Shown here: one piece after another, positions 6,770 through 60,859 of the stretch
Position numbering within the stretch: the stretch's first letter is position 1
How the letters are laid out: every line of letters begins with the position of its first letter
Assembly: GCA_047605325.1 (NCBI GenBank)
Contig: JASGFX010000005.1
Location: 2,561-66,560, forward strand
Length of the DNA stretch: 64,000 nucleotides
Direction of reading: 5' to 3'
Source: Solirubrobacterales bacterium
GTDB taxonomy: Bacteria > Actinomycetota > Thermoleophilia > Solirubrobacterales > JACPNS01
The notes under the pieces: generated by a model
What the model was told of the DNA's origin: nothing
What the model saw: only the letters and a program-made list of their open reading frames with translations
The model's database searches: none
Program-made: the position numbers and the translations under genes

Positions 6770-8085
6770 TGCACGGTTTGCGCAAAGCAATGAAGCGCTA
6801 CGGCGTGCACCTCGCGGCGATCGTGGTGCTCGTCGTGGTGTCGCTCGGTGTCGGTAGCTACATCCTCTCGCACCAGCGCCTGTATCTGCCCGCCTGGGTA
6901 CCGGTCATTGGGACCGACTTCTACACCGTGAACGCGCAGTTCACGAGTGCGCAGGCAGTCACGCCCGGTCAGGGGCAGACGGTCAACATCGCCGGAGTTC
7001 CTGTCGGCGAAATCGGCAGCGTCACTCTTGAAAACGGGACAGCCAACGTTCAGTTGAAGATCCGTCGCTCGCACGCGCCGATCTACAAGAACACGACGAT
7101 GCTGCTGCGCCCGAAGACGCCGCTGTCCGACATGTATGTCGACATGAAGCCGGGCGACCCGAGCGCGGGCGAGATCAAGGATGGCGGCACGGTTCCGCTG
7201 GCCAACACCAAGCCGACGGTCAACTTCGATGAGTTTCTCTCGCTCTTCGACGAGGACACTCGCGACTACTTCCAGAACCTCCTCACGGCGGCCGGCGAGG
7301 GCCTCGAGGGTCAGGGCGGAAACCTCCGCAATGGCTTCAAACGCTTCCCGACGACCGGCAAGTACGGCGTGCGCATCGTCAAGGAGCTGCAGAAGCGCCA
7401 CAAGAACATCAAGCGCGCGATCACGAATCTCGCGTTGCTCTCGAAGGCGCTCGGCGACAACTCGAAGGTGTTCGCTTCCCTGATCGACTCATCGAGCACG
7501 ACGTTCCGTACGTGGGCGAGCCAGCAGGAGTCGATCCGTCAGATCGTCCAGCTCGCGCCGGAAGCGTTTGGCAAGACAGCCGACGCAGCCGAGGCATCGA
7601 CGCCGGTCATTGAGGACAGCGCTGTCGCGTTCAAGAACCTTCAGCCGCTTGCCAAGAACCTCGGAGTTTCTTTGAAGAGCCTGCGCCCGTTCTTCAAGGA
7701 CCAGGCGCAGGTCACCAAAGATCACTTCATCCCGCTTGCCGAGGACTCGAAGCCGTTGCTGGAGGTTCTCAGTCCGGCCTCAACGAACCTCGCCAAGATG
7801 ACGCCTGACGCCGTCGCTGCCACCCAGTCTTTCAACCGACTTTTGAACATCGTCGGGTTCAACCCGAAGGGTTCAGAAGAGGGATATCTCTACTGGCTCT
7901 CATGGTTCAGCCATATTTCTGCGTCGAGTTTCAGCCGCGCCGATGCCAACGGCATCCTCTCGTCCGGTGCACTGGTCGCCTCATGCAAGGACTTGGGCAC
8001 TGCCGGCGCTGCGGCGCGAGGTGGAAACATCGTTTTCCCGCTTCTGGTCGGCCTCACAAATCTTCCGATCGACAAGGGCTGCTGA
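6769..8085 (+). CDS. MCE family protein 5 of 6
   Basis: 1-nt overlap with the previous gene. TM helix, then YTVNAQFTSAQAVTPGQGQTVNIAGVPVGEIGSV. Confidence 0.8.
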   Translation: MHGLRKAMKRYGVHLAAIVVLVVVSLGVGSYILSHQRLYLPAWVPVIGTDFYTVNAQFTSAQAVTPGQGQTVNIAGVPVGEIGSVTLENGTANVQLKIRRSHAPIYKNTTMLLRPKTPLSDMYVDMKPGDPSAGEIKDGGTVPLANTKPTVNFDEFLSLFDEDTRDYFQNLLTAAGEGLEGQGGNLRNGFKRFPTTGKYGVRIVKELQKRHKNIKRAITNLALLSKALGDNSKVFASLIDSSSTTFRTWASQQESIRQIVQLAPEAFGKTADAAEASTPVIEDSAVAFKNLQPLAKNLGVSLKSLRPFFKDQAQVTKDHFIPLAEDSKPLLEVLSPASTNLAKMTPDAVAATQSFNRLLNIVGFNPKGSEEGYLYWLSWFSHISASSFSRADANGILSSGALVASCKDLGTAGAAARGGNIVFPLLVGLTNLPIDKGC

Positions 8086-9727: not shown

Positions 9728-12271
9728 GTGAACCTTCCTGACATCTATCGCCGTACGGCCGAGGGCGCAGCGCGCTTCTCCCTGAAGAAGCCGCCGCTGG
9801 TGATCGCGGCCGTCGGTCTACTCGCGTTGATCGCGGCTGTGCTGGCGATCGGACTGAAGGCCGACACCGGGATCGAGTCGATCACCGGCAAGCGCTCCGA
9901 CACCTACAAGGCCTCCCAGGTCTGGGCCAAGAACTTCGGTGGCGACCCGATCATCGTCGTCGCCAAGGGCAGTGTCGCGAAGATGATGCTGAGCACCGAC
10001 GTCGCGTCGATGCTCGGCCTCGAGGGGTGCCTTTCGGGCAAGGGCACTCAGAAGGCGCTCGCCAGCATGCCCGAGATCTGCGGCGAGATCGCCAAGCTGA
10101 AGCCTGCCACCGCAGTCTTCGGTCCCGGCACTTTTGCCAACTCCGCGATCGGGTCGATCACCGACACGATCGAGCGCCTCTCCAAGGAGGCCCGCGTCAA
10201 GGGCAAGCAGGCCGGTGAGGCAGCCGCCGAGATCCAGCGCAAGGCAGGCCACGACAAGGCGGCGCAGGAGACCGCCCGCAAAGCCGCCGACGACGCCACC
10301 CGCGTGACGATGGCGCAGTACATGCTGCAGCTCGGCACGCAGTACAACATCGGCGTTGGCAGTCTGCCCGCGCTGAACAACCCCGAATTCATGGCGCGCC
10401 TCATCTTCGACGCCGTCCACGGCGCCGATACGCCGAAGTCTCGCTGGGCCTACGTCTTCCCGAGCAAGAACGCGGCGATCATCCAGGTCCGACTGCGCCC
10501 GGATCTCTCCACCGAGCAGCGCGCCGAAGCGGTCGACCTGGTGAACCGCGCGATCGCCGAACCGAAGTTCGCGCTGAACAACGGTTCCTACTTTGTCACC
10601 GGCGCTCCGGTGGTGCTCAACGGCGTCGAGGATTCGATCCAGCATGCCATCGTCGTGCTGCTGATCGCCGCATTGATCGTGATGGCGATCGCGCTGCTGA
10701 TCGTCTTCCCGGCCGAGCTTCGCCTGTTGCCGCTGGCCCTTGCGCTGATGGCCGCGGCCGGCACCTACGGCTTGCTCGCGATCACCGGATCGTCGCTGGG
10801 GGTCGGCGCCGTGGCTGTGCTCCCGGTGCTAGTCGGCCTTGCGGTCGACTACGCGATTCAGTTCCACGCCCGCGCAGACACCGCGATGCGAGAAGGCGAC
10901 GATCCACCGACCGCGGTCAAGCAGGCCGCGAGTGGGGGAGGACCCCCGGTGCTTGCCGCGGCGACCGCGACGATCGCCGCGTTGCTTGCCCTGCTGCTCA
11001 GCCCGATCCCGCTGATTCGCGGATTTGGCCTCCTGCTCGTGATCGGCGTCGCGCTCGCGATCGTGATCGTAGTGACGGCCGGCTTCGCGACGATCGGCTG
11101 GGCCGGCGGCGCGGCCAAGCGGGCCGAGCGCCGCGAGCCCGCCGAGACCGTCGCCGGCTGGGTGCGCCTGCGCAAGCTCTTCGCGCGCACGACGCGCAAC
11201 CCGCGCAAGACGGTCCGGATCGCGCTCGCATTCGCGGTGATCGGCTGGGTCTGTGGCCTGCTCTTACCGGTCACCACCGACATCCAGCAGCTCGTACCGT
11301 CAAGCCTTGGCGCCGTGAAGGACGCCAAGGAGTTCCAGAAGCTCACCGGCACCTCCGGCGAGGTCGACGTGCTCGTGCAGTCCAAGGACGTCACCGATCC
11401 CAAGGTCGTCAAGTGGATGGTCAATTTCCAGAAGACTGCGCTCGCGAAGGCCGGTTACAAGGGCGACAACCCGACCTGCGCGAAGTCTTCGCTCTGCCCG
11501 GCGCTCTCGCTGAGCGGCCTGTTCGAGAATCAGGAGCTCACCCAGGCGAACATCCGCCGGCTGCTCGACGAGGTCGGCGATTTCGCGCGCGGCGCGGTCA
11601 CGCCCGACCGCAAGATGGCGACGATCGCCTTCGGCTTGCGCCAGAAGTCCCTGAACGAGCAGAAGAAGTCGGTCGACGATCTGCGCAGCCGCATCAAAAA
11701 GGATCCTCCGCCAGCCGGGACGACCGCCACCGTCGTCGGCATCTCGGCGCAGGCAGCTGACGCCAGCGGCGCGCTGAGCAACCCGCTGCGCCGCCTGCTG
11801 ATCGCGCTGGTCGCCCTGGGCTTGCTGTTTCTGGTGGTACGCGGGGTCTCTGGCGCGTGGCGCACTGCCGCGGCCCCGGTGGTCTCGGTTGCGGCGGCCG
11901 CCGGCATTTCGGCGCTGCTGCTCTTCATCATCCGGGTCGACCTCAACCCGATGTCGGCGGCGCTCGGCGTGTTCATCATCGCGATCGCCGGAGAATTCAC
12001 TCTGCTGATCCACATGCAGTACCTGCGTGAGCGCGCGCGCGACGATTCGCTCGAGGTGATCGACGCCTTCAAGCGCTCCTATCGCACGATCGGGCCCGCC
12101 GTCTTTGCCTCCGGGGTCACAGCGATCGCCGGATTCGCGGCGCTCGCAGTGAGCGACATCAGCATGCTTCGTGGCTTCGCGCTGGTCGCCGTGATCGACC
12201 TGACGGTGGCGCTGGCGAGCACGGTGCTGCTCCTGCCCGCGATCACGGCCTGGCTCGAAGAGCGGAAATGA
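9728..12271 (+). CDS. MMPL family (RND superfamily) membrane transporter
   Basis: 847 aa. Two blocks of multiple TM helices, each preceded by a large extracytoplasmic loop. Typical MMPL layout and length. Confidence 0.8.
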   Translation: MNLPDIYRRTAEGAARFSLKKPPLVIAAVGLLALIAAVLAIGLKADTGIESITGKRSDTYKASQVWAKNFGGDPIIVVAKGSVAKMMLSTDVASMLGLEGCLSGKGTQKALASMPEICGEIAKLKPATAVFGPGTFANSAIGSITDTIERLSKEARVKGKQAGEAAAEIQRKAGHDKAAQETARKAADDATRVTMAQYMLQLGTQYNIGVGSLPALNNPEFMARLIFDAVHGADTPKSRWAYVFPSKNAAIIQVRLRPDLSTEQRAEAVDLVNRAIAEPKFALNNGSYFVTGAPVVLNGVEDSIQHAIVVLLIAALIVMAIALLIVFPAELRLLPLALALMAAAGTYGLLAITGSSLGVGAVAVLPVLVGLAVDYAIQFHARADTAMREGDDPPTAVKQAASGGGPPVLAAATATIAALLALLLSPIPLIRGFGLLLVIGVALAIVIVVTAGFATIGWAGGAAKRAERREPAETVAGWVRLRKLFARTTRNPRKTVRIALAFAVIGWVCGLLLPVTTDIQQLVPSSLGAVKDAKEFQKLTGTSGEVDVLVQSKDVTDPKVVKWMVNFQKTALAKAGYKGDNPTCAKSSLCPALSLSGLFENQELTQANIRRLLDEVGDFARGAVTPDRKMATIAFGLRQKSLNEQKKSVDDLRSRIKKDPPPAGTTATVVGISAQAADASGALSNPLRRLLIALVALGLLFLVVRGVSGAWRTAAAPVVSVAAAAGISALLLFIIRVDLNPMSAALGVFIIAIAGEFTLLIHMQYLRERARDDSLEVIDAFKRSYRTIGPAVFASGVTAIAGFAALAVSDISMLRGFALVAVIDLTVALASTVLLLPAITAWLEERK

Positions 12272-12879
12272 AAACCTTCTGGCGAGTGTTCCTGGGCCTG
12301 CTGGTGATCGGGATCATCGTCTCGCTGGTCACGCTCTTTCACGGCAATCGCCCGGTCGGCTCGGAGAACCTCGTCGGCCACGCGTTGCCGGACTTCGCCG
12401 CGCCATTGGCCTCAGGCACGCAGAACGCCGATTCGAACATCTACACCCCGGCGCAGGCGAAGGCGGTGCATTCGACCGCCGCCTGCGATGTCGACCTGCC
12501 GGGGGTGTTCAACTCCTGCCGCGATCTCAAAGGCCACGCGGTGCTGGTCTTCTGGAACAGCACGAAGTCCGAATGCGTCGGCCAGGTCGACACGCTCGAC
12601 GCATTTTCAAAGGCCAACCCGGATGTCAGCGTCGCTGCGCTCGCGTTCGATCAGTCCGAAGGCAAGGTGCGCAGTGTTGCCTCCGAGCGGGGCTGGAAGC
12701 TTCCGGTGCCGATCGATCGCGACGGCGCGGTGGCGGGTCTCTACGCGGTGGCCGGCTGCCCGACGGTGTACTTCTCCGATCGGGGGACGATCACCGGGGT
12801 TAAGCTCGGCGTGCTCACCCAGCAGCAGCTCGAGCAAGGGCTCGAGAAGCGCGCTGGGGCGACCGGAGTCACCGACTGA
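12268..12879 (+). CDS. Membrane-anchored TlpA/ResA-like thioredoxin-fold protein with a degenerate CXXC motif
   Basis: ATGA overlap with the MMPL stop. N-terminal TM helix. VLVFWNSTKSECVGQ aligns to the FWxxWCxxC region with the first Cys replaced by Lys. cis-Pro loop AGCPTVYFSDRGTI. Confidence 0.6.
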   Translation: MKTFWRVFLGLLVIGIIVSLVTLFHGNRPVGSENLVGHALPDFAAPLASGTQNADSNIYTPAQAKAVHSTAACDVDLPGVFNSCRDLKGHAVLVFWNSTKSECVGQVDTLDAFSKANPDVSVAALAFDQSEGKVRSVASERGWKLPVPIDRDGAVAGLYAVAGCPTVYFSDRGTITGVKLGVLTQQQLEQGLEKRAGATGVTD

Positions 12880-13889: not shown

Positions 13890-14426
13890 CTACTCGACGA
13901 CGATCCCCGGACCGTCGGTGGCGATCTCGACAATGTTGCCGTCGGGGTCGCGGAAGTAGATCGAGCTGTAGTACGTGCGGTTGATCGGCTCCGTCGCCTG
14001 GACGCCGTGCGCGTTCAGATGCTGATGCCAAGCGGTCAACTCTTCGAGCGAACCCGCGCGCAGCGCGAAGTGGTGGTTGACGCCGACGCCGATCGAGCCC
14101 TGCTCCATGTTCGGGTATTCCATGAACGTCACGAGCGAGCCAGGCGTGGCTTCGGCATCGCCGAAGTAGAAGTGGCGCGCGCCCGGGTCATCCTCGTTCT
14201 CGGCACGTTTGACCAACGTGAGGCCGAGCAGGTCGCGGTAGAAGCTCGTGGTGCGCTCGAGGTTTCCGCAGATCGCGGTGACGTGGTGGAGGCCGCGCAG
14301 ACGCAACTGAGGGGCTGCGGCGGACTCTGGGGCGGAGGAGGTCTCTGGCGTCGCCAGAGGCTCTGAGGTTGGCTCTGTGCTCACGAGAGAGAGCCTAACC
14401 GGATGGACGCGGGCGCTCGCGCCCAT
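13890..14426 (-). CDS. VOC (glyoxalase/bleomycin-resistance/ring-cleaving dioxygenase) family protein
   Basis: LHHVTAICGNLERTTSFYRDLLGL ... HHFAL ... SIYFRDPDGNIVEIATD are typical VOC beta-alpha-beta-beta-beta modules. The true start may lie downstream of the ORF start. Confidence 0.75.
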   Translation of the reverse strand: MGASARVHPVRLSLVSTEPTSEPLATPETSSAPESAAAPQLRLRGLHHVTAICGNLERTTSFYRDLLGLTLVKRAENEDDPGARHFYFGDAEATPGSLVTFMEYPNMEQGSIGVGVNHHFALRAGSLEELTAWHQHLNAHGVQATEPINRTYYSSIYFRDPDGNIVEIATDGPGIVVE

Positions 14427-14444
14427 CCGGGTCAGGCGGATTCT

Positions 14445-14828
14445 CTAAGCCGCGACGCGATAGACGACGCTGGCAGCGAGGTCGGGGGCGGGGCGGCCGG
14501 CAGTCAGGACGGCGGCCATCGCGGAGCGCTGACGCTCGGTCAGCGACTTGATGGTCTTACTCTCGTGCAGGCCGATCGAATCCATGAATTTGGCACAACG
14601 AGTGGAACCCCAGCGCTTCTGGCTGGTCAGGAGGTCGGCGATTTCCATGCCGCCGATCTCGTCGGTGGGGTCGAGCAGGACGTCGGCCACTGCGACGTCA
14701 CCCTTTGCGATCCGGCGCTTGAGCTCTGCGCGAGCGAGGCGGATGCGGTTGGCCTGTTCAAGAGCGCGCATGTTCTGGCGTCCTGTCGGTGCGGTCTTGG
14801 CGGCGATTTCTGGGTTTGAGTTGATCAC
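14445..14828 (-). CDS. mihF: Actinobacterial integration host factor (mIHF)-like DNA-binding protein
   Basis: Pattern ALEQANRIRLARAELKRRI...GGMEIADLLTSQKRWGSTRCAKFMDSIGLHESKTIKSLTERQR resembles the mIHF layout. The start may be the internal Met at 14771. Confidence 0.55.
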   Translation of the reverse strand: MINSNPEIAAKTAPTGRQNMRALEQANRIRLARAELKRRIAKGDVAVADVLLDPTDEIGGMEIADLLTSQKRWGSTRCAKFMDSIGLHESKTIKSLTERQRSAMAAVLTAGRPAPDLAASVVYRVAA

Positions 14829-39835: not shown

Positions 39836-42115
39836 CTAGTCGCTCTTCCCAGTCTTCAGCTTCTTGTTCACGCGGATCGCGTAAGCCGATGGCTGGGTCG
39901 GGACCTCGGGGTTCTTGATCTTGCCGAGGTGGTCGAACAGGCGGTACCAGTCCTTCTTGGAGATGCGCTGGCCGGCGCCGGTGACCTTGCCGTTCTTGTT
40001 GATCGTTCCGCTGACGCGGAAGCCGACGTGGATGTGGTCGTTGTGGTCGCCCATCGCCATCGTCGCGCCGCCGAGGTCGAACATCGAGATGATCTGGTGC
40101 GGCTCGAGCACGCCCTGGAGGGTCATGATCTTGCGCACGACCTCTTCCATCAGGCCGCCCGGCTTGTTGTTGTCGATCATCGACTTGCCGTTGACCGCGG
40201 CGATGTCGACGGCCGTACCGGTTGTGTGCTCGGAGACGTTGCCCGAACTCGTCAGCACGCCGTGGCCGCTGATCAGGCTGGAGATGGTGGGGTGGTAGCC
40301 CTCGCTGTCGAGGAAGGCGATGACCGAGAGCACGCGGCGGTCGATCTGGCCGGCCTGAATGTCCTGGCGGCCGCCCTCGTAGATCTTGATCGACTTCTTG
40401 TGCAGGATGTAGCGCTCGAGCTCTTCCTTGCTCATCAGCAGGATCTGGCCGATCGTGCGGTCGCCGGACTTCGAGACCAGCGGGTTCAAGCCGATCGCGC
40501 GGTAGACGGCGGTCGAGTCGAGCAGCTTCCAACCGTCAAGGATCGGCTTCGGGTCGATGACCGGAGCGCCGGAACCAGCGGGGCGGACCTGGAAGTTGAT
40601 GTACGGCGTGCGGCCGTGGGCCTGCTCGCCGAGACGACCGATGATCGTGCCACCGATCAGCTTGGAGCCGACCTTCATCGGCTTGAGCACGACGTCTTCC
40701 TTCTTCAGGCCGTACGGACGGGCGAAGTAGTTGTCGAACGTCTCGTAGTCGCTCATCGCGGTGCCGGTGGTGACGTCGTAGGAGCCGTCGGCGCTGGTGC
40801 GCTCGCGCTCCGGGTGCGCGTAGATGCGCTCTTTGGTCGAGACGCGTGGACCGACGCGCTTGTTCGGGTCGGCGACGGCGGCGGCCTCAGCGGCCTCTTC
40901 CTCGGCGCTCGAACCGTCGCCGTTGGCGCGCGGCACGGGGTAGAGCTTTGAGAGCGATCCGAGGTTTCCGTACTTGTAGTGGTTGCCGTAGCTGTCCTCG
41001 AGGACGATGTAGTTGCCGTCCTTCTTGGTACGGCCCATGTCGACGACTGTCGAGTCCTGGACCGAGATGGCGGGCGCGTTCACTCGCGAGTAGATCTTGA
41101 TGCCGTTGCGGCGGCCTGAACCCTGAACCACAGATGCAGCGTTTCCGTTCTTGACCTTCTTGGGCTTCGTGCTGACGGCGCCCTTGTAGGTGGCGCGGGC
41201 GTAGACCGGGAAGTGACCCTGGGTCAAGCCGGTCAGCGAGTCGATCACGACGTCCGGGACACCGGCGATCAGCTTGGCGCGAAGCATCACCGAGTCGACG
41301 TACCACTGCGCGTGGTTGTAGGCGAAGATCGCGCGCTCGATGTCGCTGTGGCCACCGGCGGCCTTGAGGTACTTGGCAGCGGCGAAGATTGCGTCGACCG
41401 GGTTGTACGGATCCTTGACGCCGTCGTTGTTGCCGTCGACTCCGTACATCTCCCAGGTCGCGGGCATGAACTGCATCCAGCCGACCGCGCCGGCGGTGGA
41501 GACGTTGAGGTTGCGGCCGTAGTCGGTCTCGATCTCGTTGATCGCGGCGAGGATCTCCCAGCGCAGGCCGTACTGCGTGCCGGCGGCCTGGTAGATCGGA
41601 AGCAGGAAGGGCGGGATCTGGAACTGGCTGAGCACGAGGCTGGGGACGCTCGCGGTGCTGCTGCCGGTGTCATCGGCGACATCGAGCGGGTCCTCCGCCG
41701 TGGAAGTGCCACCGTTGGAGCCGCCGCCCGATCCGCCGCCGTCGCTGTCGACTGCGAGGTCCTTGTCGGTGGAGGTGCTCTTCTTCTTTGAAGTCGTCTT
41801 CTTCTTGGTGGTCGTCTTCTTGCTGTTGCTGTCGGACGAACCGGTCGAGCCGCTGCCGCTGCTGCCGGAGGATCCGCTGCTGCCCGATCCGGTGGTCGCT
41901 CCCGAGTCGCGCTTGGAGGAGCCAGTCGTGGTCGAGCCGGGCGTGGAGGTCTGCGACGGGGTGGTGCTGTCCGTGCCGTCGGGGACAAGACCGGGGCTCT
42001 CGCCGGAGGCGCCGGACTCGGCGTAAGCGGTGAACGAGCTGTAGAGCACGCCAAGCAGGGCGCATACGAGCGCCACGATGACGGCGGTAGTCCTGTTTGA
42101 AGGAATGCTCTTCAC
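39836..42115 (-). CDS. Secreted multidomain peptidoglycan hydrolase: lytic transglycosylase (SLT) + degenerate LytM (M23) + LAS/M15 (VanY-like) peptidase
   Basis: TM/signal, then a Ser/Thr/Gly-rich linker. SLT-like AVGWMQFMPATWEMYG. M23-like segments lacking the catalytic His residues (NYIVLEDSYGNHYKYGNL; TPYINFQVRP). M15 motif SEHTTGTAVDI plus DHIHV. Confidence 0.7.
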   Translation of the reverse strand: MKSIPSNRTTAVIVALVCALLGVLYSSFTAYAESGASGESPGLVPDGTDSTTPSQTSTPGSTTTGSSKRDSGATTGSGSSGSSGSSGSGSTGSSDSNSKKTTTKKKTTSKKKSTSTDKDLAVDSDGGGSGGGSNGGTSTAEDPLDVADDTGSSTASVPSLVLSQFQIPPFLLPIYQAAGTQYGLRWEILAAINEIETDYGRNLNVSTAGAVGWMQFMPATWEMYGVDGNNDGVKDPYNPVDAIFAAAKYLKAAGGHSDIERAIFAYNHAQWYVDSVMLRAKLIAGVPDVVIDSLTGLTQGHFPVYARATYKGAVSTKPKKVKNGNAASVVQGSGRRNGIKIYSRVNAPAISVQDSTVVDMGRTKKDGNYIVLEDSYGNHYKYGNLGSLSKLYPVPRANGDGSSAEEEAAEAAAVADPNKRVGPRVSTKERIYAHPERERTSADGSYDVTTGTAMSDYETFDNYFARPYGLKKEDVVLKPMKVGSKLIGGTIIGRLGEQAHGRTPYINFQVRPAGSGAPVIDPKPILDGWKLLDSTAVYRAIGLNPLVSKSGDRTIGQILLMSKEELERYILHKKSIKIYEGGRQDIQAGQIDRRVLSVIAFLDSEGYHPTISSLISGHGVLTSSGNVSEHTTGTAVDIAAVNGKSMIDNNKPGGLMEEVVRKIMTLQGVLEPHQIISMFDLGGATMAMGDHNDHIHVGFRVSGTINKNGKVTGAGQRISKKDWYRLFDHLGKIKNPEVPTQPSAYAIRVNKKLKTGKSD

Positions 42116-52804: not shown

Positions 52805-52805
<1 letters not shown>

Positions 52806-53290
52806 TGGCCAAGGGCAAGAAAAAGAAGGTCGACCCCGGCGACATCGCTACCAATCGCGAAGCACGCTTTCGCTATGAGCTCTCCGATCCGGTCGAAGCT
52901 GGGATCATGCTCGTCGGCAGCGAGGTCAAGTCGCTGCGCGAGGGCGGGGTACAGATGAAAGACGCCTACGCCGACGTCAAGGACGGCGAGGTCTGGCTGC
53001 GCAATCTCCACATCGCGCCGTACAAGTTCGCCGGCAACGAGAACCACGAGCCCGAGCGGCCGCGCAAGCTGCTGCTCCACCGCCGCGAGATCGACCGCAT
53101 CGTCGGCAAGCTCGCCGAGCGCGGTTACTCGTTGATTCCGACGCGTGTGTACTTCGCCAACGGCCGCGCAAAGGTCGAACTCGCTCTCGGTCGCGGCAAG
53201 GACGTCGGCGACAAGCGCCAAGCGATCAAAGAACGCGAGATGAAGCGAGAGATGGACCGCGCCGGGGCAGACTTCCGGCGCGGCCGCTGA
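52805..53290 (+). CDS. smpB: SsrA-binding protein
   Basis: IATNREARFRYEL, GSEVKSLR, LLLHRREI. TGATG overlap with rnr. Confidence 0.9.
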
Positions 53291-53296
53291 CTCTCT

Positions 53297-55021
53297 CTAT
53301 TTGCAGACCTTGAACTTCGCGGTCTTGGTCTGCACGCGCCCCTTGGGGAAGCTGCTGTCGACCTTGAAGTACACCTTGACCTTGTACTTGTAGGTCTTGC
53401 CGGCCTTCAGCTTGAGTTTGCTCGAGAGCTTGGCCTTCAGCTTGTAAGGCGACTTCGACGACTTCTTGACGTACTTGTTGTTGATCCAGAGCTTCGCGTA
53501 GCGCACGTGCGAGCGGGCCTTGATCGTCGGGGTCACGCTGAGCGTGGATCCCTTTTTCAGGCACTTGCTCACACTCTTGATCGACACGTTGTAGTTGAAG
53601 CAAGGGGGAGTCGTGTACTTGGTTGGTGAGTCGAACGACTGCACCTGGCCCTGGTAGCTCGTGATGTCGAAGTGCGTCGAGCCGCCGTCGACCGGAGTCG
53701 ATCCGTTGGTCGGGCACTTCTGCACCATCAGCAGGCCATTGTTGCCGCCCGCGATGCTCAGGTCGAAGGTCGAGAATCCGACGCCTGGAATGTTGTCGAA
53801 GGTCGTCTGGATCTGGTTGATGTTGACGAACTGGTTGGTGCCGCGGACGTTGAACTCGATCGCGCCCTTCACGTGGATCCCGAGATCCGGCAGGTTGTGT
53901 CCGGCCGAGGGTTTCACGAGATATGCCTCGCCGGAGAGACCGGCAGTGATCATCGGCGTCGTCAGGTGCACGGTGCCGACTTGGGTTGATGCCGGGCACT
54001 GGAACGCGGCGAAGGCCTCGTTGGTGCAGACGCGGCCGAGCTGGGCGACGTCGATCGTCAGGCCCTTGGGCAGCGTCGCGGTGACGGTCTTGGGCACAGC
54101 GGCTCCGATCGGGTCGGCGCCGAGGCCGTCGATCTTCAGCTGCGTTGAGAACGCCGCGTGGCCACCGCGAGTCGAGCCGTCGGCGTGCGCATCGGCGCCC
54201 ACGTTGAACGGGGCGAGCGTGTCGCAGTTGGGCTCGGTCGGCACGACGTCGGTCTTGAAATAGTCGTTCGTGCCGGTCTGGAACGGGTCGGAGTTGGCGC
54301 CGTCGTTGTTGTTGTAGAACTGCGCGTAGCCCCAGGAGTTCCAAGTGTCGCAGCGCGTCGGGTTGGTGATGAACACGTTGCCGTTGGCGAGCTTGCCGAA
54401 GAGCTTCTGCTCGTACTTGGTGATCTGCACTCGAGCCGAACCGAGGATCGTGTTTGCCGTCGTCGGGAACGGGTCGGTCTCTGCGCGGATGCGGAAGTCG
54501 CCGTCAGGGCCGGACGTGACCGGGTAGAACTTCGCGTACGCGCGGATCGGATCGCCGGCGTTGATGCCGCCGAGCTTGGGCTGGATGTACGCGCCGACGA
54601 CGGTGGGCACCTCGGGATCGGTCTGGATCTCTGAGATCGTGCCGGTCATGTCGGTGAGGTCGATCGGTAGAAGGCCGAAGATGTACGCCTTGGCGCTGAT
54701 TGTCACGACGCCGATCTGGCTCTTGGCGTCGCAGGTCGACGAGTCGAAGGTCTCGCGTGTACAGCGGTCCGCATAGGGGATCGCGTTCGGGTTGCCGACT
54801 CCGCCCGCGGGAAGATCGATCAGGATCTTCTTGACCGTCTCGCTGGTGTCGCTCCCGTAGTTGAAAGTGACGCCGGTCGTCAGGTCGCCGTGGCCGCCGG
54901 TCGCGGTGTCGGTGGTGCCGCCATAAGGCGTTGCAGTCACTGCTGCGAAGGTATTCGGCGCCGCCGCCAGGCAGCAGATGGATACGGCCAGAAGCGCAAT
55001 TCGCAGCTTGTTTGAAAACAC
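53297..55021 (-). CDS. Large secreted protein of unknown function, paralog A (574 aa)
   Basis: GTG start 8 nt after GGAGGA. Signal peptide ...NTFAA. Shares LPAGxxGNP, C...C-x-x-x-SQ[IV]G (twice), PTRCDxW[DN]S, FDN[IL]P and a Lys-rich C-terminal domain ending KFKVCK with 55174-57171 and 57501-59471. Confidence 0.75.
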   Translation of the reverse strand: MFSNKLRIALLAVSICCLAAAPNTFAAVTATPYGGTTDTATGGHGDLTTGVTFNYGSDTSETVKKILIDLPAGGVGNPNAIPYADRCTRETFDSSTCDAKSQIGVVTISAKAYIFGLLPIDLTDMTGTISEIQTDPEVPTVVGAYIQPKLGGINAGDPIRAYAKFYPVTSGPDGDFRIRAETDPFPTTANTILGSARVQITKYEQKLFGKLANGNVFITNPTRCDTWNSWGYAQFYNNNDGANSDPFQTGTNDYFKTDVVPTEPNCDTLAPFNVGADAHADGSTRGGHAAFSTQLKIDGLGADPIGAAVPKTVTATLPKGLTIDVAQLGRVCTNEAFAAFQCPASTQVGTVHLTTPMITAGLSGEAYLVKPSAGHNLPDLGIHVKGAIEFNVRGTNQFVNINQIQTTFDNIPGVGFSTFDLSIAGGNNGLLMVQKCPTNGSTPVDGGSTHFDITSYQGQVQSFDSPTKYTTPPCFNYNVSIKSVSKCLKKGSTLSVTPTIKARSHVRYAKLWINNKYVKKSSKSPYKLKAKLSSKLKLKAGKTYKYKVKVYFKVDSSFPKGRVQTKTAKFKVCK

Positions 55022-55109
55022 GTCTCAGTCCTCCAAGAAATCCGTTTCGCCGGCGAACACCCCGAACGCCGAACGAAAGGCGTATGCCCAAAAACGGGGA
55101 TCGTCAATC

Positions 55110-55146
55110 GCTTAAACGAAAACGGGGCCCGCGCGATGCGGGCCCC
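55110..55146 (-). terminator. Intrinsic terminator of paralog B
   Basis: Minus strand: GGGGCCCGC-AUCGC-GCGGGCCCC followed by GUUUUCGUUU. Confidence 0.75.
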
Positions 55147-55173
55147 GTCTCGGACAAGTGAGTCGTTTTGTGA

Positions 55174-57171
55174 CTACTTGCAGGTCTTGAACTTGTTGGT
55201 CTTCGTCTTGATGACGTGACCGTCCTTGTAGGTGACCTTGTAGCCGTAGTAGTAGGTCTTGTTCTTCTTGTAGGTGCTCTTCTTGAGAGTCAGCTTGAAG
55301 GAGAACGGGTTGGACGAGTCCTTGGCGCGGCTCTTGGTGCTGGAGGACTTGGAGCCCGTCAGCAGCTGCACGTTGGCGACCGTCGACTTGGCGATCAGGT
55401 TCTTCGGCGAAACGCTGAGCTTCTTGCCCTGCTTGACGCACTTGGTGACCTTGCCGGGGTTGTCCACGCCATAGCACGGAGCCAGTGAGGTGGCCGAGCT
55501 GCTCGAGGCGTTGGCGCCGGTGTAGCCGTTCATCGCGAAGGTGATCGGGCCATCATCCGGCGTGCTGCCGTCACCCGGGCACTTGCGGTTCAGCAGCAGC
55601 GAGTTGTTCGAGTCGCCACCGTTGATGTGGACCACGAAGCTGTCGAACGGCAGCGACGGGAGGTTGTCGAACGTGGTCTCGATCATGTTCGCGCTGGTGC
55701 CGACGAACTGGGTCGTGGCGTCGAGTCGGAACGTGAACGCGCCGGCCGGATCGTCGTTCGGGCCGTTGACCCAGATCGACAGGTACGGCAGACCCTGGGT
55801 GGCGCCGCGCGTCATGTACACGCGGCCGTGCTGCGTGGCGCTGAGCACCGGCGACGTGATGTCGGCGGTGCCGATCTGGCTGTTGGCCGGGCAGCTGTCG
55901 GTGACAAGCTGAGCCTGCTCACAGACGTTGCCGAGCGCAGCGGCGTTGACGGTGATCGTCGACGGCAGCGTCGTGACCAACTTCTTGGTCTTGTCGCGGT
56001 CGTCCGAGTTCGGGTTTGCGATGTTGACCGTCAGACCGGGGTATGCGCCGCGGGCGTTGTTGTCGACGGCCGCGGTGGCGCCGGCGGTCAGTGCGGGCTT
56101 GCTTCCGCTGCAGTCAGCAGTGGTGGGAGCAGAGTCGAACTCGGCGTACGAGCCGCTGCTGTCTCCGCCGCCCGGGTTTGCGGTGCCCTCGAGGGTGTGC
56201 GTCTGGGAATCGGTGCCGTGGGCGGCCACAACCTCGTTGCCAACTGGTCCGCTCGTGCCGTAGGTGCGCGCGTAGAGCGTTGAGTCCCAGTCACCGCACG
56301 TGGTCGGGTTGGTCTGGAACGCTGAGACTGCGGCGGAGTTGCCGTGCTCGCGTGGGTCGCCCCAGAGGCTCTGGGTGATTCCGGTGATCGCGCCGGTCAG
56401 CGAGTTGTCGGCGAGGCCGGCGGCCGGGCTGAGGTCCGGACGATCGATCAGCTCGGAGACTGAACGCAGGCGGTAGTCGCCCTGCGGTCCGCTGGTCACC
56501 GGAGCGATCTGAGTGCGCGAAAGTGCCGCAACGACGCAGTTGGTCTCAAGCGAGAGTGCGGCGCAGTTGGTCGAGGTCGTTTCGAACACGGTGAAGAGGG
56601 TCGTGGGGACCTCCTGCAGCGGGTCGGCCGACTGAACGACGTAGATCTTGCCGTCGAGGACCTTTGTGGCGATGCCACCGGCACCGGGGTCGTCCTTGAG
56701 GGTGAGGGTTGCGGTTCCGACCTGGGCGGAGGCGGGGCACTGTGCACCCGGCATCGGGCCATAGCCCGGCTTGAGCGCGTTCTTCTGGTACGAGCGCATC
56801 TGATCCTGGGTGCAGCGCGCAGCGAATGGAATCGCGCGTGGGTTGCCGTAGAAGCCGGCCGGCGTGTCGAGGATCCACTGCTTCAGGTCGTCGCCCGTGC
56901 GGCCAAAGCCGTCGTAGCAAGGGTTCGGGTAGGGCGGCACGGAAAGCGTGCAGCCGCTCGGGCTGCTCGGCATGCCGTCATAGGCATAGTGGTGGGTGAC
57001 GGTGAGGTCGCTGTGCGCGCCGGGCGTCGGGTCATCGAAACTGACGTCCACTCCGCTGCCGGCGGTGATGAAGTCTGCATTCGCAGCAGCAGGCATGACA
57101 AATGCCGCAAGCGCGGCGGCGGCCACGACGGCCAGACACAACCTCAGGCGAGTTGCCTTTGGACGGTTCAT
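55174..57171 (-). CDS. Large secreted protein of unknown function, paralog B (665 aa)
   Basis: ATG preceded by GGAGGA. Signal peptide ...PAAANA. Same motif set as paralog A. C-terminus KFKTCK. Confidence 0.75.
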   Translation of the reverse strand: MNRPKATRLRLCLAVVAAAALAAFVMPAAANADFITAGSGVDVSFDDPTPGAHSDLTVTHHYAYDGMPSSPSGCTLSVPPYPNPCYDGFGRTGDDLKQWILDTPAGFYGNPRAIPFAARCTQDQMRSYQKNALKPGYGPMPGAQCPASAQVGTATLTLKDDPGAGGIATKVLDGKIYVVQSADPLQEVPTTLFTVFETTSTNCAALSLETNCVVAALSRTQIAPVTSGPQGDYRLRSVSELIDRPDLSPAAGLADNSLTGAITGITQSLWGDPREHGNSAAVSAFQTNPTTCGDWDSTLYARTYGTSGPVGNEVVAAHGTDSQTHTLEGTANPGGGDSSGSYAEFDSAPTTADCSGSKPALTAGATAAVDNNARGAYPGLTVNIANPNSDDRDKTKKLVTTLPSTITVNAAALGNVCEQAQLVTDSCPANSQIGTADITSPVLSATQHGRVYMTRGATQGLPYLSIWVNGPNDDPAGAFTFRLDATTQFVGTSANMIETTFDNLPSLPFDSFVVHINGGDSNNSLLLNRKCPGDGSTPDDGPITFAMNGYTGANASSSSATSLAPCYGVDNPGKVTKCVKQGKKLSVSPKNLIAKSTVANVQLLTGSKSSSTKSRAKDSSNPFSFKLTLKKSTYKKNKTYYYGYKVTYKDGHVIKTKTNKFKTCK

Positions 57172-57434
57172 TTAGGTTTCCTCCGTTCACGCCCTGACGC
57201 GCTCCCCAGCGATCGTCGAGCGGATGTTCATTCGACGTCTCGGCCTCGCAAGGTCGAAACACTCCCTTGATACTGCAACCTACTGGACTTCCGGGACAGT
57301 TTGCGATTTCTCTCACAACTGTCCAGTTGGTCACTAAGTAACAGTCCTGTCACTAACTTCAACGATAGAACACGGACCTGTCAAGAAGGTTTCGGCGGAC
57401 TAGCCCATTTGTGTTAATTGCGCGCTAAACGCCA

Positions 57435-57470
57435 GAAAAAACGCCCCCGGTGGAATCTCCACCGGGGGCG
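57435..57470 (-). terminator. Intrinsic terminator of paralog C
   Basis: Minus strand: CGCCCCCGGUGGA-GAU-UCCACCGGGGGCG followed by UUUUUUC. Confidence 0.8.
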
Positions 57471-57500
57471 TTTGGAGTGACGGATCGCCGTCGGATTTCG

Positions 57501-59471
57501 TCAGCGACAAACCCGGAAGAAGGCGCTGCCCGTGTTGAGCACCGTGCCGTCCTTGTAGGTCACGCGGTAGGCGAAGCGGTAACGCCATCCGCGGTTGTAG
57601 AGCTTGCGCGAGATCGTGTGGCGCAGCGCGAACGGCGAGGAGCCGCGGCTGGCGCGGGTGCGCATGCCCTTTCTGTTGTGGCCGATCCGTACTTCGACGC
57701 GCCTGACCAGCGCCGCCGAGCGCAGGCCCTGCGGAGTGAAGGTCGCCGAGCGGTTGAGGCGCAGACAGCTGTTGCGGGTCGCCGGGGTCGACACGCCGTA
57801 GCACGGCTTCATCGAGGTGGCCGAGCTCGAGGCGGTGGCGCTGCCGCCCCAGCCGGTGGTTGCGAATGTGATCGGTCCGTCGGCCGGCAGCGAGCCGTCG
57901 GCCGGGCACTTGCGGTTGAGCAGCAGCGAGGTGGCCGACGAACCGCCAGTGATGTTCACGGTGAAGTCCGTGAACGGCGTCTGGGGGAGATTGTCGAACG
58001 TGGTCTCGATCATGTTCGCGCTCGGGCCGACGAACTGGGTCGTGGCGTCGAGTCGGAACTTCACCGCTCCGTCGACGAAGATCGAGAGGTAGGGGAGGCC
58101 TGCCGTGGCGCCCTTGGTGATGTACACGCGCCCGGTCAGACCGGCCGCGATCAGCGGGGTGGAGATCGTCGCGGTACCGACCTGGCTGGCGGCCGGGCAG
58201 GTGTCCGCGGCGAGGTCGGTGTCCGAGCAGACGTTGGTCAGCGCGTTGACGTTGATGCTGACCGATGCGGGCAGCGTCGTGATCATCTTCTTGGGCTGTT
58301 GGTGGTCGGACGGGTCGCTGTCGGCGACCTTGATCGAAAGCGACGGGTAGGCTCCGCGCTCACCGCTGCCGAGCGTGCCCGTGCTGCTGGCTCCGATCGT
58401 TGGCATCTGCGCGCAGTCGCTGCCACTGGGCGTCACTGAGTCGGTGTTGGAGGTCTGGTAGTTGTTGTCGCCGGGGTGGTTTGGGTCCATTGCGGTCGAC
58501 CCACCAGTCGGGTTGGCCCAGTCGATTGCGTATGACTTTGAATCCCAGCTGTCGCAACGGGTGGGCATCGTCAGGAACGGCGTGTCGCCTTGGCCGGCGG
58601 TCGGGAAGTTGTCGTTGGGGTCGACGAGGCCATAGAGGTGCTGATCGATCCGGCGAATGTGCAGGGGGGTACCGCCAGAGCCGAGGCCAGGATGGCCGTA
58701 GGCGGTGGGCAGCAGCGCCGACGGTGGATTTGTGTACTCGGCTGGAATCGTGCGGATTCGGAAGTCAGTTACATCGTCCAGGTCGGCGGAGCGATTCGTG
58801 ACCGGGGCGAGCACGCTTTTTGTCTTAGGCTGGATCAAGCATGGCGTTCCGGGGGCCGTCGTGCACGTGTTGCCCCCGTAGGCTGAGAAGTCGAAGTTCT
58901 GGTACGAGGCGCTGGTGAAGAGCGTGCCGAGCGTGGTCGGAACCTCCGGGTCGGTTTTGAGGATGTAGATCTTGCCCACCATCGGGCCGCTGAGGGCGGA
59001 CATGTCTTGGCCCGCAAGAATGCACTGGAGCGGCGCTGCAGGGCATGTACCCGAGTTGGCGTCGTTCACGAGGTAGACCTTCGCCTCTCCAACCTGCGAC
59101 GAAGCCGGACACGAGCCCGTGAAGAAGGTGTTGTACGCAGCGGCGGCTCCCGGTGTCGGGTCGAATGAGGCCGGGTCGCAGCGATCTGCTTCGGGAACCG
59201 CATTCGGGTTTCCGACCAGGCCTGCCGGCGAGTCGACGACCCACTTCTTGAGATCCTGACCGGCTCCTGTCGAGGCGGTCGGTTCAGGCCCATTGCCGTA
59301 CTCGAACTCCTGGATGATCGTGTAGTCGGTGTGCGCACCGGGCACTGTCGAGCCGTAGACCGTCGAGGCCTCGGTGGTGATGCCGAATGCCGATGGTACG
59401 AAGACGACGATCGCTGTGATCAGCGTCGCGACAATGCTCAGGCAAAGGCGAGCTGCCTTTGATGGCGTCAT
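57501..59471 (-). CDS. Large secreted protein of unknown function, paralog C (656 aa)
   Basis: Track ORF trimmed to the ATG at 59471, preceded by GGAAGGA. Signal peptide ...PSAFG. Same motif set as paralogs A and B. C-terminus FFRVCR. Confidence 0.75.
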   Translation of the reverse strand: MTPSKAARLCLSIVATLITAIVVFVPSAFGITTEASTVYGSTVPGAHTDYTIIQEFEYGNGPEPTASTGAGQDLKKWVVDSPAGLVGNPNAVPEADRCDPASFDPTPGAAAAYNTFFTGSCPASSQVGEAKVYLVNDANSGTCPAAPLQCILAGQDMSALSGPMVGKIYILKTDPEVPTTLGTLFTSASYQNFDFSAYGGNTCTTAPGTPCLIQPKTKSVLAPVTNRSADLDDVTDFRIRTIPAEYTNPPSALLPTAYGHPGLGSGGTPLHIRRIDQHLYGLVDPNDNFPTAGQGDTPFLTMPTRCDSWDSKSYAIDWANPTGGSTAMDPNHPGDNNYQTSNTDSVTPSGSDCAQMPTIGASSTGTLGSGERGAYPSLSIKVADSDPSDHQQPKKMITTLPASVSINVNALTNVCSDTDLAADTCPAASQVGTATISTPLIAAGLTGRVYITKGATAGLPYLSIFVDGAVKFRLDATTQFVGPSANMIETTFDNLPQTPFTDFTVNITGGSSATSLLLNRKCPADGSLPADGPITFATTGWGGSATASSSATSMKPCYGVSTPATRNSCLRLNRSATFTPQGLRSAALVRRVEVRIGHNRKGMRTRASRGSSPFALRHTISRKLYNRGWRYRFAYRVTYKDGTVLNTGSAFFRVCR

Positions 59472-59713
59472 GGTGGGTTCCTTCCAGTTAGACCCGGTGC
59501 ACGCTCCCCAGCGCCAGTCCGAGCAATCGTTTGTGAGCTGCCCTGGCGCATCCGCGCCAGACAAACCGTTCTGACTGAAACCTACCGCGATTCGAGGACG
59601 GCTGACACGATCGCGGAAGTGTCTTTGCGGTCACTTGGTACGGCGGCTTGGGGGCGGTCGGTGAGTAGGATCACTGTCGCATCAAAAACTGAATAGATGC
59701 ACCTCACACACAC

Positions 59714-60068
59714 GGGGACGCCAGGTTTCGACGCGGCCGATTTCGTGGGTGGAGTTGCGAGCCGAGGTTGTCTGGAGGCCTCGTTAAACCCCAGGCAAAA
59801 CCATAAATGCGGACTCTCACGAGTACGCCCTCGTCTAAATAGACTGAGGCATCCGTCCAGCCTGGGCCCGTGGGCTGGGTAGCGGGTGTCAGCCAACGGG
59901 CTTGACCGAAGCGCGCGCATCAGGCGCCCGGTGACATTCAACTGACGCTGGCTCTCCCGGACCCTGCCGGCCTGGCTAACGGAGAGCGAGATCCAGAAAG
60001 CCGGACACGCTCGTAGACGCTTTATTCCACGCGGTTGCGGACGCGGGTTCAATTCCCGCCGTCTCCAC
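59714..60068 (+). ncRNA. ssrA: tmRNA (SsrA)
   Basis: 5' GGGGACGCCAGGUUUCGAC. 3' GGACGCGGGUUCAAUUCCCGCCGUCUCCA, a T-arm plus an acceptor stem with the G3:U pair. CCA is not fully encoded. Tag ORF GCG GAC UCU CAC GAG UAC GCC CUC GUC UAA at 59809-59838. Confidence 0.9.
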
Positions 60069-60146
60069 TTTGGGTCGCTGACTCGCACGTATTCGCCGAT
60101 GCTCGGGCTCCGGACTTTGGTGCCTTGTAGCGCTTATACTGAACTA

Positions 60147-60431
60147 ATGGCGACACAAACGAAGAAGCGCGTTTCGGTTGGGGTTCGTGAGCTTCACAAT
60201 CGGACCAGCGCCTTGATGCAGATGGTCGAGGACGGTGCCGAGATTGAAATCACCAAGCACGGCAAAGTCCTTGGAGTGCTGCGGCCGTCGGTTCCAGATG
60301 CGTTTTACGAGAGGCTCAAGTCGGAGGGGCGCATTCGAGAGGCTCGCGTTCGCGACGACTGGGTGCCAGAGCCGATTGCGCTTCCGCCGGGCGTCACGAT
60401 TTCGGACTTGATTGACGAGCAGCGCCGCTGA
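60147..60431 (+). CDS. Type II antitoxin (Phd/YefM-like; VapB role)
   Basis: Track ORF trimmed to the ATG at 60147, which sits 6 nt after a TATACT -10-like hexamer, so the transcript may be leaderless. VRELHNRTSALMQMVEDGAEIEITKHGKVLGVL is a typical Phd/YefM N-terminus. Confidence 0.7.
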   Translation: MATQTKKRVSVGVRELHNRTSALMQMVEDGAEIEITKHGKVLGVLRPSVPDAFYERLKSEGRIREARVRDDWVPEPIALPPGVTISDLIDEQRR

Positions 60432-60859
60432 TCGTCTACTTCGACAGCTCGGCGTTGGCCAAACTCATGCTTCCGGAGGATGGGAGCGATTGGGCTCGCG
60501 CCTGCTGGGCGCAGTCGGAGGCGCGTCTGGCTTCGAGTCTCGCCTACGTCGAAGTTCGCGCGGCTCTGGCCGCGGCTCGCAGGTCGGGCCGGCTGACGAA
60601 AGCCCTGCACGTCCGCGCCAAGCGGGAATTCGAATCGATCTGGGAGCGGATCGACGAGTGCGAACCGACCATTGAGGTGATCGCCGCTGCGGCCGGATTG
60701 GCAGAGCTCCACTCGTTGCGCGGCTACGACGCGGTGCACCTCGCGACGTCCGTGCATGAATACCGACACGAGCCGCTCTTCATGCTCACTTGGGATCAAC
60801 ATCTCGCCCGCGCGAGCCATGATGCAGGGGTCAACGTGATCCACACCCACGACGCGTAA
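60428..60859 (+). CDS. vapC: PIN-domain toxin (VapC)
   Basis: The conserved N-terminus (L)IVYFDSSAL, with the first catalytic Asp, lies upstream of the first ATG (60455). The only candidate start is CTG at 60428, overlapping the antitoxin stop as CTGA. Further acidic residues at EV and GYDAVHLA. Confidence 0.6.
   Translation: MIVYFDSSALAKLMLPEDGSDWARACWAQSEARLASSLAYVEVRAALAAARRSGRLTKALHVRAKREFESIWERIDECEPTIEVIAAAAGLAELHSLRGYDAVHLATSVHEYRHEPLFMLTWDQHLARASHDAGVNVIHTHDA

Follow-up and report, generated by a model that had tools for sequence, protein, structure and literature searches.

Between smpB and ssrA, the gene for transfer-messenger RNA (tmRNA), the chromosome of a Solirubrobacterales bacterium (Actinomycetota; Thermoleophilia) carries three large paralogous genes on the opposite strand, here termed A, B and C, which encode proteins with signal peptides. 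The genes lie in a stretch of 64,000 nucleotides (assembly GCA_047605325.1, contig JASGFX010000005.1, positions 2,561 to 66,560 of the forward strand), hereafter called the window, to which all coordinates refer. With moderate confidence we regard A, B and C as wall-associated surface proteins, forming either a coat or a fibrillar adhesin, which would be exported by the Sec pathway and stabilised by disulfides. They belong to an undescribed family centred on Solirubrobacterales, and the gene cluster is an old, vertically inherited and clade-defining trait.

The smpB gene (52805-53290, plus strand), identified in the window and in the relatives by its Pfam match, is convergent with paralog A, a “short” type of 574 amino acids with a GTG start codon (53297-55021, minus strand). 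Paralog B, of the “long” type, comprises 665 amino acids and starts with ATG (55174-57171, minus strand). Paralog C, a second long type, comprises 656 amino acids from its ATG (57501-59471, minus strand); its open frame extends to a TTG at 59564, yet the Shine-Dalgarno (SD) sequence GGAAGGA lies just before the ATG, and a length of 656 amino acids is also given in the record at NCBI. The ssrA gene (59714-60070, plus strand; tag peptide ADSHEYALV) was located with ARAGORN and matches Rfam family RF00023 with 161 bits. The gap between smpB and ssrA measures 6.4 kb, and the three paralogs are the only open reading frames (ORFs) inside it. A preliminary description of the window, made from the letters alone, had placed three minus-strand genes of 574, 665 and 656 codons in this gap, and its coordinates, lengths and gap size are all correct. 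Paralog B is identical to a “hypothetical protein” from a Solirubrobacterales metagenome-assembled genome (MAG), and C is identical to the neighbour of that protein.

The three proteins align end to end with 34-40% pairwise identity, and about 170 alignment columns are invariant, including many Cys, Pro and Gly residues. Eight of the Cys residues are invariant in A, B and C as well as across 29 homologs. Each protein has a Sec-type signal peptide, judged by inspection and hydropathy. Its n-region is basic, its c-region follows the small-x-small pattern (TFA↓A, ANA↓D and AFG↓I), and it contains the sole hydrophobic segment of the protein. Both the paralogy and the signal peptides proposed in the preliminary description thus hold. 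Motif inspection of A, B and C yielded no lipobox, twin-arginine or thioester motif, nor was there an LPXTG-like motif near the C-terminus or a C-terminal hydrophobic window. The mature proteins contain even numbers of Cys residues (10, 14 and 14), which, together with the eight invariant positions, is consistent with four or more disulfides per protein. The charge distribution is strongly polarised. The last ~95 residues contain 22-29 Lys and Arg versus 1-2 Asp and Glu, resulting in an isoelectric point (pI) of 10.3-12 (paralog A: pI 10.6, 29 Lys and Arg), while the remainder of each protein is acidic with a pI of 4.5-4.8. The basic C-terminal domain is a seven-stranded beta domain that ends in an invariant Cys.

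The acidic part is internally duplicated. A profile of residues 360-570 of B, termed module 2, matches the N-terminal half of the paralogs with E-values down to 3e-8, and hence each protein comprises two tandem copies of one module, a beta-sandwich of roughly 200-300 residues with putative disulfides. Each copy opens with an xGA[HY]xD-L-T-V-type motif and contains the signature LPxG..NP.A...C......CP..SQ[VI]GT. A His-x-Asp motif near the mature N-terminus reads PGAH[ST]D in B and C and GGHGD in A, and it recurs as AGAHPD and variants in distant relatives. Within the second module, a stretch of 280 nucleotides is 75% identical between B (55465-55744) and C (57792-58071), as compared to an overall protein identity of 37%; this local similarity may reflect stronger constraint or gene conversion.

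A, B and C match no Pfam or NCBIfam model, including Cna-B, SpaA, FctA, SLH, CWB2, LysM and integrase domains, and no PHROGs or PADLOC model, and sequence-profile searches of the PDB with 3 and then 29 sequences retrieved nothing. All these searches were empty or far below threshold, in agreement with the earlier statement that the proteins fall into no recognised family.

The AlphaFold2 model of B is all-beta and multi-domain, with a mean predicted local distance difference test (pLDDT) score of 83 and a predicted TM-score (pTM) of 0.76, and module 2 modelled alone (residues 355-570) reaches a pLDDT of 91 and a pTM of 0.87. In Foldseek comparisons the full-length model retrieved only strings of immunoglobulin-like (Ig), fibronectin type III (Fn3) or macroglobulin (MG) domains, namely cohesin-Fn3 proteins, adhesin repeats, complement C3/C5, gp130 and phage tail proteins, with query-normalised TM-scores (TMq) of 0.1-0.2. 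Module 2 has no match in the PDB at E <= 1e-3. Its best partial matches, with TMq values of at most 0.41, are integrin calf and thigh domains, YcnI, BslA, a DUF4466 protein, ACE19 and BcpA, all of which are extracellular Ig-like sandwiches. Taken together, the structural neighbours of the B models are limited to extracellular Ig-like, Fn3, MG, cohesin, pilin or MSCRAMM domains.

In another reading, A, B and C would stem from phages, as tail or receptor-binding proteins, or would serve in defence. Foldseek against viral models returns tail and Fn3 proteins with E-values of about 1e-5 to 1e-6. These matches, however, are again generic Ig/Fn3 strings with TMq values of 0.1-0.2, there is no PHROG or PADLOC match and no other phage gene is adjacent. 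Moreover, tail proteins do not typically carry Sec signal peptides, and a phage or defence origin is therefore scarcely credible.

The family reaches far beyond the window. A single-sequence search retrieved about 30 full-length relatives, all from Solirubrobacterales/Thermoleophilaceae MAGs or metagenome contigs, along with weak matches to proteins of 900-1,150 amino acids. A profile search in 1.84 billion representatives of 50%-identity clusters detected 3,603 proteins at E <= 1e-3, 2,176 of which score at <= 1e-10 and 556 at <= 1e-30. The largest relatives comprise up to 7,161 amino acids and 31 copies of the module. Most of the listed full-length relatives have a signal-like N-terminal segment, and most have a Lys/Arg-rich C-terminal stretch; no Pfam domain was found among the relatives scanned. 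Where source names are given, they read “hypothetical protein” of Solirubrobacteraceae, Solirubrobacterales or Actinomycetota. A, B and C share the features of this superfamily, i.e., a signal peptide, an N-terminal His-x-Asp motif, at least two modules with the LPxG...C...CPxxSQ[VI]GT signature and a basic C-terminus. Accordingly, the family is lineage-specific, as had been proposed, only as far as the smpB-proximal cluster is concerned, which is confined to one clade, whereas the module itself belongs to a superfamily of about 3,600 clusters at 50% identity.

Hypothetical proteins of about 1,000 amino acids from Solirubrobacteraceae (e.g., P0034, P0037 and P0045) are true homologs, with E-values of 1e-15 to 1e-4 for a single query and of 1e-43 to 1e-50 for the profile. 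Like A, B and C, they are uncharacterised and combine an AGAHPD-type N-terminal motif, the LPxG...C...CPxxSQ[VI]GT signature and a basic C-terminus. In contrast to A, B and C, they harbour three to five modules rather than two and are encoded away from smpB and ssrA, directly downstream of NHL/PD40/Fn3 beta-propeller proteins and sometimes in duplicated triads, while the window locus has no such partner. In two loci (L007, 1-13524; L008, 6404-13198) the repeated triads consist of a large NHL/PD40/Fn3 beta-propeller protein, a module protein of 900-1,065 amino acids and a secreted protein of about 260 amino acids without Pfam match. This triad may represent a conserved extracellular partnership.

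The proposed wall-associated surface location of A, B and C rests on the signal peptides, the combination of an acidic body with a basic tail, the all-beta models, the internal duplication with up to 31 module repeats in relatives, the stable inheritance of the cluster and the individual terminators. An envelope or adhesion role, put forward in the preliminary description, remains the most reasonable reading also in view of the Ig-like models, the even Cys counts and the polycationic C-terminal domain. Upon Sec export and cleavage of the signal peptide, each module would become a rigid Ig-like unit that is locked by pairs of Cys residues, and the polycationic domain would tether the protein to anionic wall polymers without a covalent bond. 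Long and short forms might then co-assemble and jointly build either a coat on the cell surface or a short fibrillar adhesin. The genes themselves are native to the chromosome and inherited vertically, with copies being gained and lost over time (2-4 per genome).

Several observations weigh against this assignment. A, B and C contain no recognised wall-binding module (SLH, CWB2, LysM or LPXTG), and the fold matches are generic, as the query-normalised TM-score does not exceed 0.41 and no module-level match reaches E <= 1e-3. In their preference for C-ending codons, the three genes exceed the average of the window by a small margin only (0.63-0.65 vs 0.58), and two other genes in the window score as high; thus, very high expression is not demonstrated. 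Finally, since distant relatives adjoin NHL/PD40 beta-propellers that are absent at the window locus, the role of the family may differ by context.

The main rival holds that the proteins are freely released, acting as substrate- or metal-binding proteins, toxins or enzymes, with the basic C-terminus binding a target or DNA, including extracellular DNA. A signal peptide without a covalent anchor or recognised wall-binding domain fits this possibility, and so does the recurring His-x-Asp motif, which could bind metal or another ligand; furthermore, the copper-binding Ig-like protein YcnI is among the weak fold matches. Yet no search revealed similarity to a catalytic domain, and tandem arrays of up to 31 modules typify stalks rather than enzymes. 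Given that the polycationic terminal domain is also conserved across the superfamily, we deem free release unlikely, albeit worth serious consideration.

Among known surface systems, one that comes close in overall organisation is that of the S-layer (surface layer) proteins of the SlpA type from Lactobacillus, which are anchored non-covalently via a basic wall-binding domain. These proteins likewise combine a Sec signal peptide and an acidic body rich in Thr, Ala, Ser and Gly with a separate, strongly basic domain, and their paralogs lie side by side as individual transcription units with strong terminators and long conserved 5' leaders. A, B and C differ from them by lacking sequence or fold similarity as well as SLH or CWB2 domains, and their many Cys residues are unusual for S-layer proteins. 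With S-layer proteins in general they share export by a signal peptide. Proxies for the very high abundance and the self-assembly into a two-dimensional lattice that characterise S-layer proteins are limited to the slightly raised codon preference, the strong terminators and the long conserved leader.

Fibrillar adhesins built from tandem Ig-like domains (Big, Fn3, SiiE, MSCRAMM and Gram-positive pilins) resemble A, B and C in the use of repeatable beta-sandwiches, two in the paralogs and up to 31 in the relatives. Moreover, such proteins are among the weak Foldseek matches (6xi3, SiiE 2yn3, ACE19 2okm and BcpA 3rkp). In contrast to them, A, B and C have no Pfam stalk or adhesive domain, no LPXTG motif and no identified adhesive head, and the neighbours with Pfam annotation include no annotated or otherwise recognisable sortase. 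The module also differs from a classical Ig domain, being about twice as large and containing its own conserved Cys pairs. Alpha-2-macroglobulin and complement proteins composed of MG domains are set apart by their CGEQ-like motif, which A, B and C lack, and by TMq values of 0.09-0.13 to C3, C5, A2M and TEP1. We place A, B and C in the class of surface proteins with Ig-like repeats, to which they add a previously undescribed module.

The genomic context of the cluster is shared by related genomes, which belong to a clade of soil Solirubrobacterales without cultured members. The same cluster lies beside smpB in six other clade genomes, and thus in 7 of 7 clade genomes with usable context, including the window. 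The number of paralogs is three in L001, L002, L010 and L011, four in L004 and two in L005, and the cluster is convergent with smpB in every case. The tmRNA gene is found on the far side of the cluster in L001, L002, L004, L005 and L011, and the L010 contig begins inside the 5' end of the tmRNA. In L011, a Thermoleophilaceae MAG, the tmRNA gene (7254-7609) is co-directional with the paralog cluster instead of divergent, i.e., ssrA is locally inverted. The cluster is kept across the clade down to a protein identity of about 36-41%. The preliminary description had stated that relatives with the same genes in the same place and a well-annotated function would refute its reading: relatives with the genes in this place exist, but none of them carries an annotated function.

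Two outgroups, L017 and L018, encode SmpB proteins with 72-74% identity and retain the order ftsE-ftsX-ctpB-rnr-smpB, which is followed by genes for a PspC/LiaF-like sensor, a histidine kinase and a response regulator. Neither paralogs nor a tmRNA gene were found within 9 kb of smpB in these outgroups, and therefore, the adjacency of smpB and ssrA is not general in the class. The premise that the two genes are normally contiguous and were separated by the cluster thus fails for the nearest relatives sampled outside the clade. A literature search on smpB-ssrA synteny returned nothing relevant.

A neighbour-joining tree of 21 paralogs resolves two deep clades, short forms of 548-585 amino acids next to smpB and long forms of 596-665 amino acids next to ssrA. 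Every clade genome has at least one long and at least one short form. The short clade includes lineage-specific duplications in L001 and L004, and, among the genomes sampled, only that of the window has two long genes, B and C, which fall into different long sub-clades. Paralog C is orthologous to the ssrA-proximal gene of L004, L005, L010 and L011. This birth-and-death pattern, combined with the obligatory pair of a long and a short gene, suggests that the two forms act together. In L001, the intergenic DNA between the paralogs (about 12040-12300 and 14009-14513) harbours two copies of an element of about 45 nucleotides, TTGCG[GA]CGCTCCGTCGTTTGGACGGAGCG[TC]CGCAAGGTTTGG, and two tiny called ORFs; the element may be a small repeat or debris of a lost paralog.

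Non-housekeeping genes adjoining a tmRNA gene invite interpretation as the remains of a genomic island, and an old insertion at the ssrA hotspot had in fact been considered in the preliminary description. The tmRNA genes are well-established integration hotspots, the copy number of the paralogs differs between genomes and a variable toxin-antitoxin pair occupies the other (3') side of ssrA. However, integrase-borne islands that target ssrA are located on its 3' side and leave a second copy of the 3' end, while the cluster lies on the wrong, 5' side. Neither the ORF list nor Pfam and NCBIfam searches revealed an integrase in the 6.4-kb interval, and the last 28 nucleotides of the tmRNA occur only once in the window, even with up to 3 mismatches allowed, such that there is no duplicated attachment (att) site. 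The composition of the cluster is native, with a GC content of 0.61-0.67, a GC content at third codon positions of 0.84-0.89 and a per-codon usage like that of the neighbouring core genes. In addition, the cluster is present in every sampled clade member, and no plasmid or phage homologs were found with PHROGs or by tblastn against plasmids. An origin as an ssrA-integrated island is thus largely refuted and appears highly improbable. The cluster illustrates that non-housekeeping genes beside ssrA need not be an island, which corrects a tempting inference.

The position next to the trans-translation genes could alternatively be functional, with, for example, the long paralog and ssrA sharing a bidirectional control region, by which a major secreted protein would be co-regulated with ribosome rescue. 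In six relatives the long paralog is divergent from ssrA (the L012 contig is truncated), and the intergenic region displays 67% nucleotide identity, compared to proteins that are 36-70% identical to B. Yet in the window the whole gene C separates the leader of B from ssrA, the orientation of ssrA is reversed in L011, and the outgroups carry smpB without a nearby ssrA. As distant family members are found nowhere near smpB or ssrA and no mechanism is evident, we consider such a link very unlikely. The position between smpB and ssrA most likely reflects inherited synteny rather than a functional link or an island.

A, B and C form separate transcription units, and none of them shares its leader or terminator with another paralog. 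The SD sites, legible directly in the sequence and suitably spaced from the start codons, are GGAGGA for A (55034-55029), GGAGGA for B (about 57184-57179) and GGAAGGA upstream of 59471 for C. The intrinsic terminator of B (55113-55150, minus strand) folds with -32.3 kcal/mol (z -5.7), and that of C (57430-57473, minus strand), an inverted repeat with perfect 16-bp arms, folds with -34.6 kcal/mol (z -7.0); both are followed by a U-run. Although missed by a simple consensus scanner, both were confirmed by reading and folding the sequence, and individual SD sites as well as strong terminators of B and C had been correctly recognised before. Directly after the stop codon of A, an inverted repeat that overlaps the 3' end of smpB (53244-53296, minus strand) forms a hairpin of -31.4 kcal/mol (z -3.4) without a U-run, and may act as a shared, bidirectional transcription stop.

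The conserved leader and promoter region of B spans about 250 nucleotides and includes the SD site (57172-57430, minus strand). It begins right after the terminator of C and, in the relatives, is homologous to the entire interval between ssrA and the long paralog. Thus, the leader adjoins ssrA directly in the other genomes, while in the window C and its terminator are interposed. A weaker copy of the leader precedes C (59472-59650, minus strand), within the divergent intergenic region that also contains the presumed ssrA promoter (59472-59713). The leader was found upstream of the long paralog in L001, L002, L004, L005, L010-L013, L015 and L016. A scan of GTDB representatives and a scan of metagenome DNA with the leader motif each yielded no more than 4 loci, which kept the alignment at 12 sequences. 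It has a mean nucleotide identity of 67%, with the corresponding proteins being 36-70% identical to B. Its invariant block, CGCUGGGGAGCG...AACGGAGGAAACC..AUG, comprises a hairpin and the SD site. For this alignment, the hairpins predicted by RNAalifold are all short and include 3 compensatory pairs, and an Rfam scan of the leader gave no match, its sole hit being the terminator hairpin of C.

The hairpin of the B leader, CGCU-GGGG-AGCG (57200-57211, minus strand), is invariant, and C has a similar hairpin, GCGCU-GGGG-AGCGU (59501-59514, minus strand). Paralog A carries a hairpin with a GGGGU loop, GGCGTTC-GGGGT-GTTCGCC (55052-55070, minus strand), about 20 nucleotides upstream of its SD site, and the orthologous hairpins have differing stems. 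Hairpins with a GGGG(A/U) loop occur across all paralog types, including the short-type genes of L002, L004 and L010, about 10-20 nucleotides upstream of the SD site and with their 3' end 19-29 nucleotides before the start codon. The stems vary (CGCU/AGCG, GGUGCAC/GUGCGCC, CGGCGCGC/GUGCGUCG and GCGGCGCAC/GUGCGCUGC) while the loop is kept, which supports a candidate shared cis-regulatory RNA element, conceivably a protein-binding or ribosome stand-by site. A CsrA-type reading, based on the GGGGA hairpin and the GGA-containing SD site, was not adopted; the short-type leaders have GGGGU, which contains no GGA.

In its most far-reaching form, the surface-protein hypothesis states that the long and short paralogs make up the outermost layer of the cell, an S-layer or fibril coat composed of an undescribed, disulfide-locked module that is a signature of the order, and that this layer is controlled via a new cis-acting leader RNA with GGGG(A/U) hairpins. 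This combined proposal is speculative, and we judge it still less likely than free release.

Among the Actinomycetota, Thermoleophilia and especially Solirubrobacterales are abundant in soil, and very few of them have been cultured. To our knowledge, almost nothing is known about the envelope biology of these bacteria, and a literature search on S-layers in Thermoleophilia found nothing relevant. A family that comprises thousands of clusters, has no annotation in the libraries searched and yields confident models without a close solved relative is a candidate major surface component of Solirubrobacterales. The module may qualify as a new domain for inclusion in Pfam or InterPro, and the conserved leader provides a small lead for a new regulatory RNA motif.

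Upstream of smpB lie fab genes, followed by ftsE, ftsX, a gene for a CtpB-like S41 peptidase and rnr (RNase R), and smpB is the last gene of this run, as assigned by Pfam (ABC, FtsX, S41, RNB and SmpB). On the 3' side of ssrA follow a Phd/YefM-PIN pair and genes for an alpha/beta hydrolase, a C26 amidotransferase and a GCS2 ligase. The pair, a Phd/YefM-like antitoxin and a PIN toxin (60099-60859, plus strand), lies directly 3' of ssrA and also occurs in L004 (8115-8806), while L002 has an unrelated ORF of 101 amino acids at this site and L001 and L005 have nothing there. The pair thus represents variable cargo at the 3' side of the tmRNA gene, where the classical hotspot is situated; no att repeat was found in the window. 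Elsewhere in the window (39836-42115, minus strand), a protein of 759 amino acids with an SLT lytic transglycosylase domain and a weak M23 peptidase domain has the highest preference for C-ending codons in the window (0.667), and is probably another well-expressed envelope protein.

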